64,000 nucleotides of DNA, taken from positions 2,176,001 to 2,240,000 of the forward strand of contig CAVXGK010000002.1 in assembly GCA_963761305.1 (NCBI GenBank), written 5' to 3'. Source of the DNA: an uncultured Gemmatimonadaceae bacterium. GTDB taxonomy: Bacteria > Gemmatimonadota > Gemmatimonadetes > Gemmatimonadales > Gemmatimonadaceae. The notes beneath the pieces were generated by a model. The model searched no databases. It was not told where the DNA came from and worked only from the letters and a program-made list of their open reading frames with translations. Each line of letters begins with the position of its first letter. The first letter of the stretch is position 1. The position numbers and the translations under genes were made by a program. Positions 21,190-56,602 of the stretch are shown piece by piece.

Positions 21190-21194
21190 TTGTC

Positions 21195-21228
21195 GGGTGG
21201 AGGGGTGGACAGGTGGACGGGTGGACAG
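21195..21228. repeat. Degenerate octamer array (4 units) ending 5 nt before ATG 21189
   Basis: GGGTGGAG GGGTGGAC AGGTGGAC GGGTGGAC. Confidence 0.85.
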
Positions 21229-22646: not shown

Positions 22647-22706
22647 GGTGGGGCGGAAGGAGCCGGCGGAGGAGGGCGAAGCCCGCGTCCGACTATCTAC
22701 GCCTCA

Positions 22707-22736
22707 CCCGTCCGCCTGTCCACCCGTCCACCTGTT
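22707..22736. repeat. Degenerate octamer array abutting the stop codon at 22737
   Basis: CCCGTCCG CCTGTCCA CCCGTCCA CCTGTT. Confidence 0.8.
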
Positions 22737-25572: not shown

Positions 25573-25607
25573 CTGTCCAGCCGTCCACCTGTTCACCTGT
25601 CCACCCG
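25573..25607. repeat. Degenerate octamer array before ATG 25610
   Basis: CTGTCCAG CCGTCCAC CTGTTCAC CTGTCCAC CCG. Confidence 0.85.
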
Positions 25608-29054: not shown

Positions 29055-29175
29055 GTCCACCTGTCCACCTGTCCACCTGTCCACCTGTCCACCTGTCCAC
29101 CTGTCCACCTGTCCACCTGTCCACCTGTCCACCTGTCCACCTGTCCACCTGTCCACCTGTCCACCTGTCCACCTG
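29055..29175. repeat. (GTCCACCT)x15 tandem array ending 3 nt before the ilvE ATG
   Basis: Direct count of perfect units. Confidence 0.97.
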
Positions 29176-37834: not shown

Positions 37835-38593
37835 TCAGCCGTCCAGCCGCGTCAGTACTCTCGGTCCGTCCTCGGTGATCGCGACCGTGTGCTCGAAATG
37901 CGCCGACAGCGATCCGTCGAGCGTCACGATCGTCCACCGATCCGCGAGCGTCTTCGTCGCCGGTCCGCCGACGTTCACCATCGGCTCGATCGCCAGCGTG
38001 AGGCCCGCCGAGAGGCGCTCGCGCCGCTTGGGCTTGCCATAGTTCGGTACCTGCGGCTCCTCGTGGAATTCGACGCCGATGCCGTGGCCCACCAGATCAC
38101 GCACCACGGTGAATCCCGACTCCTCGACGACGCCCTGCACCGCCGCGCCGATGTCGCCGATGTGATTGCCGACGACCGCCGCGTCGATCCCCGCCGCCAG
38201 TGCCTTCTGCGTGACGTCGAGCAACCGTTGCGCTTCGGTCGAAATCGTGCCGACGGGTACCGTCGTCGCGCTGTCGGTGAAGTAGCCCTTATAGCCGACG
38301 CCGACGTCGAGCGAGATGATGTCGCCCTCTTTGACGACGCGCTTCGGCGACGGAATGCCGTGCACGATCTCGTTGTTCACCGACGCGCAGATGCTGCCCG
38401 GAAATCCGTACAGCCCTTTGAACGCCGGCACCGCGCCCTCGTGGCTCCGGATGAACTGCTCGGCGATCGTGTCGAGCTCGCCCGTCGAGATGCCGGGGCG
38501 CACCGCGCCGCGCAATGTTTCGACGGTCGCGGCGAGAATTTTCCCGCCTTGCGTCATGAGATCGAGCTCGCGGGCCGACTTGAGCTGAATCAC
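37835..38593 (-). CDS. map: Methionine aminopeptidase type I
   Basis: SVNNEIVHGIP, GHGIG, AIEPMVN and SAHFEHT; GTGA overlap with adk. Confidence 0.97.
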   Translation of the reverse strand: MIQLKSARELDLMTQGGKILAATVETLRGAVRPGISTGELDTIAEQFIRSHEGAVPAFKGLYGFPGSICASVNNEIVHGIPSPKRVVKEGDIISLDVGVGYKGYFTDSATTVPVGTISTEAQRLLDVTQKALAAGIDAAVVGNHIGDIGAAVQGVVEESGFTVVRDLVGHGIGVEFHEEPQVPNYGKPKRRERLSAGLTLAIEPMVNVGGPATKTLADRWTIVTLDGSLSAHFEHTVAITEDGPRVLTRLDG

Positions 38594-39228
38594 ACGTCGA
38601 GCGCCTTCAGCGCGCGCGCGGTGATCTCGTCGACCGTTCCCACCGCGTTGATGACGATCACTTTGCCGCCGTTCTTCGCGTACCAGTCGAGCACTGGCGC
38701 CGTCTGTTCGTCGTAGACGCGCAGCCTCGTGCGAATGGCCTCGGGTTCGTCGTCCTTTCGCCGCACGAGCTTTCCGCCGTCCTTTTTGTCGCACGCCGAG
38801 CCCGGCAGCCGTCCGGCGTACGGCGTCTGGCATTTCTCACACACCGTGCGCGTGCTCAAGCGGTTCACGATCTCGTCGTTGTCGATGTCGAAGACGAGCA
38901 CCGCGTCCACCCGCCGCATGAGCAGCGTGAGCATCATGGCCAGCCCCTCGGCCTGCGGCACGGTGCGGACGACGCCGTCGAGCAGCACGCCGCGTTCGTA
39001 CTCGGGGTGCTTCAACTCCTCGCCCACGATGCCGAGGATGACCGAGTCCGGCACGAGGTCCCCGCGATCCATGAACGCCTTGGCCTCGAGTCCGAGCTTG
39101 GTGCCGGCGCGCACCGCGCCGCGCAGCACATCGCCCGTCGCCAGCGTCGGCACGCCGAGCTTCGCCGACAGCAGCGGCGCCTGCGTTCCCTTCCCCGCGC
39201 CCGGTTTTCCGAAGAGGACGATGATCAT
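38590..39228 (-). CDS. adk: Adenylate kinase
   Basis: GKPGAGKGTQA, GDLVPD and RRKDD. Confidence 0.97.
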   Translation of the reverse strand: MIIVLFGKPGAGKGTQAPLLSAKLGVPTLATGDVLRGAVRAGTKLGLEAKAFMDRGDLVPDSVILGIVGEELKHPEYERGVLLDGVVRTVPQAEGLAMMLTLLMRRVDAVLVFDIDNDEIVNRLSTRTVCEKCQTPYAGRLPGSACDKKDGGKLVRRKDDEPEAIRTRLRVYDEQTAPVLDWYAKNGGKVIVINAVGTVDEITARALKALDV

Positions 39229-39330
39229 GGTGGCGGAAATGTATGGGGATTCCGGTGCATCCGGGAATGAAAGGATGACGGTCGTTCCGCGCCGGCGAGC
39301 CACCCTATCGGTCGGCTCTCGGAACTACTC

Positions 39331-39773
39331 AACGCAGAGGCGCGGAGGCGCGGAGAACGACCATGAGGGAATTGAACGACATCAGTGGTGAGATCGTCGA
39401 CGGGTCCGTGCGGGTTCATTCGGCACTCGGCCCCGGATTGCTCGAGAGCGCCTACCAGACATGCCTTGCGTACGAGCTTCGAGAGCGCGGGCTGTTCGTT
39501 CGCACGCAGGTGCCACTCCCAGTCGTGTACCGAGGCATCGAACTGTCAGTCGGCTACAGAGTTGATCTTCTCGTCGATGACGCCGTCATGGCGGAGCTCA
39601 AAACCGTCCCAAACATCCTACCGGTCCATGAAGGCCAACTTCTCACATACCTCAAGATGAGCGATCGTCGACTGGGCCTGCTCCTCAACTTCCATGTTCC
39701 GCCGATGCGAGACGGCATCAAGCGCCTCGTAAACAAATTCTAATGTTTCTCTGCGACTCCGCGTCTCCGCGGT
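39331..39773 (+). mobile_element. Candidate element: GxxExxY gene framed by 27-bp imperfect inverted repeats
   Basis: Arms 39331-39357 and 39747-39773 match 22/27; each is three CGC(A/G)GAG-N octamers; inserted antisense between secY and adk. Confidence 0.55.
39363..39743 (+). CDS. GxxExxY family PD-(D/E)xK nuclease-fold protein
   Basis: LGPGLLESAY, RVDLLVD...AELK, QLLTYLK and GLLLNF. Confidence 0.95.
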   Translation: MRELNDISGEIVDGSVRVHSALGPGLLESAYQTCLAYELRERGLFVRTQVPLPVVYRGIELSVGYRVDLLVDDAVMAELKTVPNILPVHEGQLLTYLKMSDRRLGLLLNFHVPPMRDGIKRLVNKF

Positions 39774-39795
39774 AAAGCTGTTCACGACGCGCCAC

Positions 39796-39828
39796 AAAAG
39801 AGGAGGCCCGGCCTTTGACAGCCGGGCC
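39796..39828 (-). terminator. Terminator-like hairpin after secY
   Basis: GGCCCGGC-8-GCCGGGCC followed by TCCTCTTTT on the minus strand. Confidence 0.6.
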
Positions 39829-39849
39829 CCGAACGACTCCGCGACCTCG

Positions 39850-41190
39850 CTAGTACCCGCCGGGCGCTCCCTGCCGCCCACGGAACTTGATCCGCCCTTT
39901 CTTCATGAAGCCGTCATACTTCCGCAGCAGCAGGTGCTGTTCCATCTGCGTGATCGTATCCAGCGCGACGCCGACAACGATCAGCAGCGACGTACCACCG
40001 AAGTTGAACGGCACGTTCATCGCCGTCGAAATCCAGATCGGCAGGAGCGCGACGGCCGTCAGGAAGAGCGCGCCGGGCAGCGTGATCTTGGAGACGACGT
40101 CGTCGATGTACTCGGCCGTCTTGGCGCCGGGCTTCACGCCCGGCACGAACCCGCCCTGCTTCTTCAGATTCTCGGCGACATCGATCGGGTTGAAGATGAT
40201 CGACGTGTAGAAGTACGTGAAGAACAGGATGAGGATCGCCGACAGGATGTAGTACATCGTCGACCCTGGAGCGAGATAGTCCGCGAAATCGCGAAGACGC
40301 GGGCTGCCCATGAACTGCGCGATGGCGCCTGGCACGACGATCACCGACTGCGCGAAGACGATCGGCATCACGCCCGACGCGTTGACGCGAAGCGGGATGA
40401 AGCTGCGGCTCGCTTCGCGCATCCGGCCTTTCGCCATCGTCCGCTGCGGTATCTGGATCAGCACCTTGCGCGCCGCCATCGTCACCGTGACCACGGCCGC
40501 GACGACGCCCGCCATGATGAGGATCAGCACGACGAGCGAGAAGGCGCCGATGACGCCCGTGCTCACGTAGCCGAACGCCGAGAAAATGCTCGGCCAGATG
40601 CGCTCGACGATCGAGAAGAAGATCATCAAGCTCGCGCCGTTGCCGATCCCGCGCTCGGTGATCTGTTCGCCGAGCCACATCACGAACACCGCGCCGACGG
40701 TGAGGAAGAACGTCATCAGCAAGCGGAATCTGAAACCGGGATTCACGACGGCGCCGGTGATGCCTTCGGCGAAAATCGCGAAGCCCCACGCCTGCACGGC
40801 GGCGAGCGCCACGGTCGCGTAGCGCGACCACTGGTTCAGGCGCTTTCTGCCTTCCTCGTCCTTCGACATCTTGTCGACCTGCGGCACCACGGCCTGCGCG
40901 ATCTGCTGGAAGATGCTGGCCGAGATGTACGGCATGATCCCCAGCGCGAAGACCGTCGCGCGGGCGAGCTGGCCGCCGGTGAACAGATTGTACAACCCGA
41001 GCAGACCGCCGCCGTTCTTCTGCGAATCGATGAAATCCGAGATCGCCTGCGGGTTGATGCCCGGCGCCGTGACGTGCGCGCCGATGCGATACACCAGCAG
41101 GCAGAGCAGCGTGAACAGGATCTTGTCTTTCAGCTCCGGCGTGCGAAACAGATTCTGGACCGCGTTCGTCGCCGCATTCGACTGAGCCAT
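39850..41190 (-). CDS. secY: Preprotein translocase SecY
   Basis: FALGIMPYISASI, WLGEQITERGIGNG and GGTSLLIVVGV. Confidence 0.98.
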   Translation of the reverse strand: MAQSNAATNAVQNLFRTPELKDKILFTLLCLLVYRIGAHVTAPGINPQAISDFIDSQKNGGGLLGLYNLFTGGQLARATVFALGIMPYISASIFQQIAQAVVPQVDKMSKDEEGRKRLNQWSRYATVALAAVQAWGFAIFAEGITGAVVNPGFRFRLLMTFFLTVGAVFVMWLGEQITERGIGNGASLMIFFSIVERIWPSIFSAFGYVSTGVIGAFSLVVLILIMAGVVAAVVTVTMAARKVLIQIPQRTMAKGRMREASRSFIPLRVNASGVMPIVFAQSVIVVPGAIAQFMGSPRLRDFADYLAPGSTMYYILSAILILFFTYFYTSIIFNPIDVAENLKKQGGFVPGVKPGAKTAEYIDDVVSKITLPGALFLTAVALLPIWISTAMNVPFNFGGTSLLIVVGVALDTITQMEQHLLLRKYDGFMKKGRIKFRGRQGAPGGY

Positions 41191-44286: not shown

Positions 44287-44331
44287 CCGGTCTACCGGTC
44301 TACCGGTCTACCGGTCTACCGGTCTACCGGT
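44287..44331. repeat. (CCGGTCTA)x5 array just after the rpsN stop
   Basis: Direct count; reads GGTAGACC on the sense strand, a variant of the GGTGGAC family. Confidence 0.93.
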
Positions 44332-47039: not shown

Positions 47040-47163
47040 GTGATCGTTCCTCGCTTCGGCGCTTCCGCACCTCCGCTCGGAATTCTCCATCCAGCCGTCT
47101 TCGTGATCGTTCCTCGCTTCGACGCTTCGCGCCTCCGCTCGGACTTCTCCATCAAGCCGTCTT
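47040..47163. repeat. ~62-bp imperfect tandem duplication filling the rpsC-rplP spacer
   Basis: Units 47040-47101 and 47103-47163 (GTGATCGTTCCTCGCTTCG...AGCCGTCTT). Confidence 0.92.
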
Positions 47164-56364: not shown

Positions 56365-56602
56365 GGTGGACCGGTGGACCGGTGGACCGGTGGACCGGTG
56401 AACCTGTGGACGGAAGAGACCGAGCTCGGCGCGGGCTTCCGACATCAATCCGTTGCGCTCAACTTGGACGCCCAAGCGTCCGCCGACCTGAACGGCCTGT
56501 CCACCTGTCCACCTGTCCACCTGTCCACCTGTCCACCTGTCCACCTGTCCACCTGTCCACCTGTCCACCTGTCCACCTGTCCACCTGTCCGCCCGTCCAC
56601 CC
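56365..56602. repeat. Inverted pair of octamer arrays: (GGTGGACC)x4+ ... (CCTGTCCA)x11+ running into the GTG start
   Basis: Arrays at 56365-56412 and 56496-56602, ~83-nt spacer. Confidence 0.93.

Follow-up and report, generated by a model that had tools for sequence, protein, structure and literature searches.

A GxxExxY gene framed by inverted octamer arms at secY-adk: a probable copy of a widespread gene-and-repeat unit

What is the small gene that lies between secY and adk, on the strand opposite to both, in the genome of an uncultured Gemmatimonadaceae bacterium (GCA_963761305.1), and what are the inverted repeats that frame it? An earlier, sequence-only reading of the window, by which we mean the whole 64,000-nucleotide stretch of DNA analysed, took gene and repeats for an autonomous mobile unit, and its description of the parts was accurate. 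The gene (39363..39743, plus strand) encodes a GxxExxY protein of 126 amino acids with a PD-(D/E)xK fold. It stands between an upstream arm (39322..39357, plus strand), which ends 5 nt 5' of the ATG at 39363, and an inverted downstream arm (39747..39783, minus strand), which starts 3 nt 3' of the stop codon that ends at 39743. Each arm holds three CGC(A/G)GAG units with a period of 8 nt, at 39333, 39341 and 39349 upstream and at 39749, 39757 and 39765 downstream. The 27-nt inner stretches (39331-39357 and 39747-39773) are complementary at 22 of 27 positions and form the top-ranked inverted repeat within 38800-40300. Both arms extend about 10 nt further outward than this core, the upstream arm with a GAAC.. 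segment and the downstream arm with a segment carrying the consensus TTTAC end. A short motif, CCGATAG(A/G)G (39303..39311, minus strand), reads towards adk 11 nt outside the upstream arm. The cassette lies about 20 nt beyond an intrinsic-terminator-like hairpin 3' of secY (39803..39830, minus strand) and stops 93 nt short of the adk start. We treat the hairpin as host context; a similar one is present in several cassette-free alleles too.

The protein scored 132.7 bits on TIGR04256 (cut-off 35) and 129.5 on PF13366 (PDDEXK_3, cut-off 22), its sole Pfam match. Residues G25, L26, E28, Y31, D68, E78, K80, Q92, L93, Y96, G105 and N109 are invariant in 60 aligned homologues; they include the GxxExxY motif residues G25, E28 and Y31, as well as D68 and E78-x-K80, the D...ExK residues that had been picked out from the sequence. 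The invariant Q92 and Y96 resemble the QxxxY motif of the RecB family. The predicted structure was confident (pLDDT 95.5), and its top structural matches were PD-(D/E)xK nucleases, including Cas4 (4ic1, 4r5q) and exonucleases such as LHK-Exo. These matches were weak, and because the best reached a Foldseek E of 0.002 (none below 0.001) and a Z of 8.3, no specific nuclease family was singled out. tRNA splicing endonucleases were also among the weak fold matches, and a PDB sequence search with the protein gave no match. The protein is like the RecB, Cas4 and lambda-exonuclease nucleases in fold and in its E..D..ExK geometry, but differs from them in being a minimal 126-aa domain, with no CRISPR or helicase partner at the locus. 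In nine unbroken gene copies at secY-adk, E28, D68, E78 and K80 were kept in all, and the median pN was 0.21 against a pS of 0.74. Taken together, the substitution rates and the kept catalytic residues indicate that the protein is under purifying selection, and the profile matches and the model place it in the PD-(D/E)xK superfamily as a putative nuclease.

The arms are not a chance feature, since the genome has them at about 35 further sites and they flank most of the homologues that we scored, with none in the distal controls or the shuffles. We fetched the best 80 of 194 GTDB homologues, and 76 loci, several of them close kin of one another, had enough flank to be scored. At least two CRCRRAG units stood on both flanks, inverted, at 59 of the 76. 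The wrong strand gave 4 of 76, and neither the 65 distal windows nor the 200 shuffles gave any. The units were mostly spaced by 8 or 9, and the same unit class occurred in both arms of a cassette in 48 of 60 cases (12.5 expected). By their record titles, the homologues came from Acidobacteriota, Chloroflexota, Nitrospirota, Planctomycetota, Verrucomicrobiota, Proteobacteria, Desulfobacterota and Bacteroidota, and the cross-phylum consensus was TTHAC-CRCRRAG-N-CRCRRAG, with a sharp outer TTHAC end. A deeply separated GxxExxY clade was mostly without the CRCRRAG motif and had a different motif at some loci. Most of the close homologues do have inverted arms, and the condition under which the earlier reading would have fallen, a lack of such arms at other GxxExxY copies, therefore does not apply. 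The genome contains a second close GxxExxY copy (C2:151741-152271), truncated after about residue 57 and framed by arms; an extra short palindrome lies downstream of it. The gene was co-oriented with both neighbours at 49 of 65 homologue loci and antisense to both at 1 of 65 (crude ORF calls). Antisense insertion had been read as a trait of the unit; it is local to the secY-adk site.

The presence of one motif on both flanks of one clade across phyla, tied to the presence of that clade, suggests that the protein recognises the CRCRRAG arms. With its catalytic residues intact, it would be likely to nick or cut the triple arms, and its substrate would be DNA rather than RNA. The association of gene and arms is strong, and we lean somewhat towards the reading that gene and arms are one copy of a widespread unit, whose protein probably binds and nicks or cuts the arms and so sustains the gene-less palindromes described below.

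In the cassette itself, the last unit of the upstream arm contains GGAG (39352-39355) 7 nt before the ATG, which by its sequence is likely a ribosome-binding site. The two arms pair in the predicted RNA fold (MFE and centroid), and if they do so in the transcript as well, the region around the start codon, including the GGAG, would be masked and expression damped. Such pairing also agrees with another explanation, that the arms are binding or processing sites useful to the host, that the protein acts on the folded RNA by binding or cutting it (or on DNA by binding alone) and thereby controls its own and neighbouring transcripts, and that changes in the hairpins reflect nothing but ordinary palindrome instability. 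The tRNA splicing endonucleases among the fold matches and the co-oriented gene in gene runs (49 of 65) point the same way, as does the proposal, in the text examined of PMC2700814, that paired repeats of this kind are regulator binding sites. Even so, we consider this explanation unlikely; the whole cassette RNA folds no better than shuffles (z -0.74), and the distribution of arms and gene, taken up below, also bears against it. Over 38500-40500 there was no Rfam match above the gathering score, only a 17-bit chance match outside the cassette, and a promoter scan of the cassette region gave no sigma-70 match. Among sequencing runs the largest share of matching words was 0.20, and the four that were aligned proved to be contigs of mixed organisms, with no bearing on expression or excision.

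Elsewhere in the genome the arms occur without the gene. A strict pattern found 28 arm pairs and a profile found 35 matches over 100 bp; most of these gene-less elements are nested palindromes of about 250 bp that fold into long hairpins. They carry a conserved core that shows no similarity to the GxxExxY gene, which does not agree with the earlier idea that they derive from it. The same arms can hold either the gene or unrelated cores, as would be expected if they bounded a non-autonomous element that some other enzyme mobilises, with GxxExxY a mere co-inherited cargo. We find this distinctly unlikely. No gene other than GxxExxY is framed by any of the 28 arm pairs of this genome, genes for four-helix-bundle proteins have different repeats, and a passenger would not be expected to retain a single motif on its two sides in so many phyla. 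The elements are intergenic, 16 lying between convergent, 12 between tandem and 2 between divergent genes, with 5 unclassed (crude ORF calls); their frequent place between convergent genes (16 of 30 classed) would also suit sites with a regulatory role. Eleven of the 35 are packed in about 70 kb (C1:1647000-1716000), and their distribution over contigs is uneven. Just outside the arms of many elements there are variable tandem AACTGC hexamers, in up to 7 copies (for example, C1:1267119-1267378 and C2:1479036-1479279).

The pairwise identity of 25 gene-less copies was 62-84% (median 72%), suggesting that there has been no recent movement in this genome, and none of the 25 compared were the near-identical dispersed copies typical of a MITE or insertion sequence. 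No direct repeats of at least 5 nt were found at 7 offsets in 23 elements, nor was there a target-site duplication at the cassette, as had been noted from the sequence. Two further ideas about the copies were rejected. Arm-to-arm homogenisation inside a copy was not seen, an arm being as similar to its own partner (0.72) as to other copies (0.71) and its own partner being the best match in 2 of 23; variable centres as captured spacers were dropped, the centres looking alike by eye. A CTCTATCGG-like motif stands 10-14 nt outside one arm at 10 of 81 arms in relatives, compared with 0 of 415 control windows. Its instances here are at window 39303-39311 and at genome positions C1:1668412, C1:1688287, C2:2900290 and C2:3008304, and at one replaced site it was lost together with the element. 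It is possibly an outward promoter (-10 box) carried by the element, which can only be a guess given that no sigma-70 match was obtained.

Within the 64-kb window we found no CRCRRAG arms besides the two of the cassette, so the palindromes and arrays that had been proposed there as gene-less derivatives are none. The tandem arrays belong to a separate family of GTCCACC/GGT(A/G)GAC octamers, with about 170 loci genome-wide, which in the window occupies 21194-21228, 22705-22735, 25573-25605, 29055-29175, 44287-44331, 56365-56411 and 56496-56601. Arrays of this type adjoin 2 of 9 four-helix-bundle (TIGR02436) gene loci, and other genes of that family have 7-9-nt repeats of their own. Two 62-nt tandem copies, 91% alike, lie at window 47040-47163.

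To look for an empty site, as the earlier reading had proposed, we compared 30 secY-adk loci. The set consisted of the locus in this genome and the 29 best adk matches among the 60 relatives searched. The gene was present in 11 of the 30, antisense every time; one of these loci lacked the upstream arm and two had a frameshifted gene, possibly through sequencing error. The other alleles comprised 1 gene-less core, 3 other repeats, 1 other gene and 14 short forms. The gene is thus not a fixed, syntenic feature of the lineage, and alleles without it, short or gene-less, do exist. No clean empty allele was found, with the caveat, which holds for the target-site duplication as well, that each genome compared stands for another species and that the signal could have faded in old copies. 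At one locus (L021, genome G003) the same outer arms and flank motif surround a gene-less core. That allele is nested, with CGCAGAG-type outer arms, inner CGGAT-type arms like those near the distant GxxExxY clade, and the standard core. At L016, L026, L029 and L030 (G011, G004, G009 and G013) there are other palindromic or 7-mer repeats or an unrelated ORF of about 170 codons, and because of these varied occupants the slot looks like a hot spot for several repeat families. In the closest clade the gene is at secY-adk in 7 of 7 genomes, and outside this clade three sister pairs differ, so the cassette is old at this site and has been repeatedly lost or replaced. Its long residence, the missing duplications and the 62-84% identity of the gene-less copies are at odds with autonomous mobility. 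In its behaviour the unit is a slow resident of the chromosome, comparable to a RAYT gene and its REPINs, and does not resemble an active insertion sequence.

The differing sister pairs, which have the gene in one member and nothing or another repeat in the other, also raise the possibility of a homing-like spread, in which recombination within the flanking genes, aided by cuts of the nuclease, carries alleles of conserved intergenic slots from one lineage to another. The gene diverges more than its neighbours at four-fold sites; against G017 it stands at 0.67, where the 47 other genes have a median of 0.37 and reach at most 0.51. The identity of its DNA to that of this genome is out of step with host distance, and at one element site the whole intergenic region has been swapped for a different palindrome family. 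The divergence against G015, however, was 0.54 and within the neighbour range (maximum 0.58), the four-fold comparison leaving aside the G019 gene pair, and low codon bias and saturation can inflate the divergence of the gene. Vertical descent at secY-adk was not rejected in an AU test (p 0.176) with a weakly resolved gene tree. Incongruence of that tree was considered and discarded, as it came down to one starred join in the protein tree, which was gone in the DNA tree. Homologues moreover lie at many unrelated sites, not at one target, and we regard a homing-like spread as very unlikely.

Element sites outside secY-adk also change between genomes. A synteny survey for the elements of four relatives gave 55 rows, a few counted twice, and 45 of these had syntenic flanks in this genome, where 17 held a full element, 4 one arm and 24 none. 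At 11 shared sites, orthologous copies were on average only as alike as paralogues (0.70 versus 0.69; ranks 1-24 of 25), and some variants are typical of one genome; for example, one 9-mer junction is split 19:4 in this genome and 0:20 in G024. In a close pair, G022 and G024, about 0.4 Mb from each was compared and 15 element sites were matched, with flanks mostly 90-98% identical. Nine of these sites were retained and six differed in structure. The changes were one collapse of the interior with fusion of the arms, one core swap between like arms, one replacement of the core by another of opposite polarity, one single arm with a different interior, one replacement by an unrelated palindrome family and one absence. 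A clean core inversion at G022 C4:42305 was considered and rejected, and the change is reported as a replacement because identity was at the paralogue level in both orientations. Blanket hypermutation between the arms was also rejected, as the sequence inside them is as well conserved (pooled identity 0.90) as the adjoining 60 nt of flank (0.91). It counts against a part for the nuclease that the retained sites diverge like other intergenic DNA (inner identity 86-94%), and there was no clean empty-versus-filled junction at the sites of this pair or at other shared sites. The persistence of elements at shared sites would be expected of regulatory sites useful to the host, but their fast gain and loss (24 of 45 syntenic rows empty here, 6 of 15 sites different between G022 and G024) would not.

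A survey of 201 genomes of the phylum supports the conclusion that arm abundance tracks the GxxExxY gene and not the Y1/RAYT transposases. Of the 48 genomes with a close homologue, 24 had at least 10 arm doublets, as did 3 of the 153 others. Kin are not independent in this comparison, so that the Fisher p overstates it; the contrast was also seen within the genera g26, g21 and g17. When the same 201 genomes were divided by Y1_Tnp, the counts were 15 of 90 with and 12 of 111 without, and PF01797 gave no match in this genome, which is 93% complete. These results argue against an arm element moved by another enzyme, the transposases surveyed being of the Y1_Tnp type. The exceptions, some of which favour the cargo explanation, are arm-rich assemblies in which no intact close homologue was found, namely G008 (104 doublets), G025 (47), G213 (52), G003 (25), G150 and G236. 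All of them are fragmented except G236, whose gene is split over two frames and occurs only in broken copies. Half of the gene-bearing genomes also have few arms, as counted with one arm pattern. That a close homologue was not found in 153 of the 201 genomes does not favour a general regulatory use of the arms. None of 50,697 phage records had the gene, which was found in 8 of 72,556 plasmid records, mostly large replicons, and on 1 viral contig; the best plasmid match, at 66%, was in Gemmatirosa. On plasmid 1 of Gemmatirosa kalamazoonensis related arms lie next to a homologue that appears to be frameshifted.

We return to the reading that the protein acts on the arms. If cut arms were repaired from the arm opposite or from a second copy, the collapses, the swaps and the genome-typical variants would follow, and arm-bounded DNA may occasionally be re-seeded, by which the protein could have a part in new insertions. 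Long palindromes are themselves prone to deletion and rearrangement, with no need of a dedicated enzyme, and this could yield some of the observed changes. In its widest form, which we put forward only tentatively and would rate somewhat short of an even chance, the reading makes GxxExxY proteins the dedicated enzymes of a widespread repeat-generating class with a new chemistry, in which a minimal restriction-fold nuclease would recognise tandem heptamer arms and, with no transposase and no target-site duplication, cause the DNA between them to be exchanged, to collapse or to be newly inserted, so that each genome has a homogenised hairpin family of its own.

How does the unit compare with known repeat systems? 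The nearest are the REP and REPIN sequences with their RAYT (TnpA-REP) genes, REPtrons and TIRtrons, as described in the parts consulted of PMC3116915, PMC3733652 and PMC8266576. As these sources present them, the likenesses are a small nuclease-fold gene between inverted repeats, gene-less inverted doublets that are numerous, vary little in length and form long hairpins between genes, and a cassette that is a chromosomal resident and not a typical insertion sequence. The inverted repeats around the gene also form dispersed hairpins, as in a REPtron, and their abundance follows the gene, with exceptions. The differences, on the same accounts, lie in the enzyme, which has a PD-(D/E)xK fold and no Y1 match, unlike the HUH/tyrosine RAYT; in the arms, which are tandem 8-9-nt purine-rich units ending in TTHAC, unlike the small stem-loops of REP tagged with GTAG/CGTC; and in the gene-less elements, which are about 250 bp long with a nested core, unlike REPINs. 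Since enzyme and repeat both differ, the unit is REPtron-like in its working but is not a REPtron. The analogy with REP/RAYT drawn in the earlier reading therefore stands as regards a recurring gene-plus-arms unit with abundant gene-less relatives, and falls as regards the Y1 domain and the GTAG/CGTC tags. The gene-less elements are like MITEs in being short and non-coding, with inverted ends and dozens of dispersed copies, and unlike them in that no target-site duplication, near-identical copies or cognate transposase was found and the ends are tandem units.

Gene-less arms have been in print once, in 2009, as regulator sites. The Class 2 'predicted global regulator binding sites' of Geobacter metallireducens (PMC2700814) are gene-less paired triple repeats of this kind, with all 21 pairs lying between consecutive genes (Gmet_I2, 43 rows, Table S4), and were read as IHF/HU or regulator sites; the text examined of that paper makes no link to GxxExxY or to mobility. 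The widespread GxxExxY/PDDEXK_3 family is described in the part consulted of PMC3424549 as of unknown function and subject to multiple transfers, and in that of bioRxiv 2021.01.26.428298 it is mentioned once, beside a reverse transcriptase. A literature search, mainly of open-access main texts, found nothing that links the GxxExxY gene with repeats, and the partnership of gene and repeat is apparently unpublished. New here are the series of alleles at one fixed site (gene, gene-less core, other repeat, short), the in-place turnover seen in two closely related genomes and the comparison with Y1 transposases across the phylum.

The arms give a family of unknown function a precise candidate substrate, TTHAC-(CRCRRAG-N)3. 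If the protein does cut or remodel the repeats, bacteria would have a second route to REP-like palindromes, one without an HUH transposase, and the 'global regulator sites' of Geobacter would become members of such a family.
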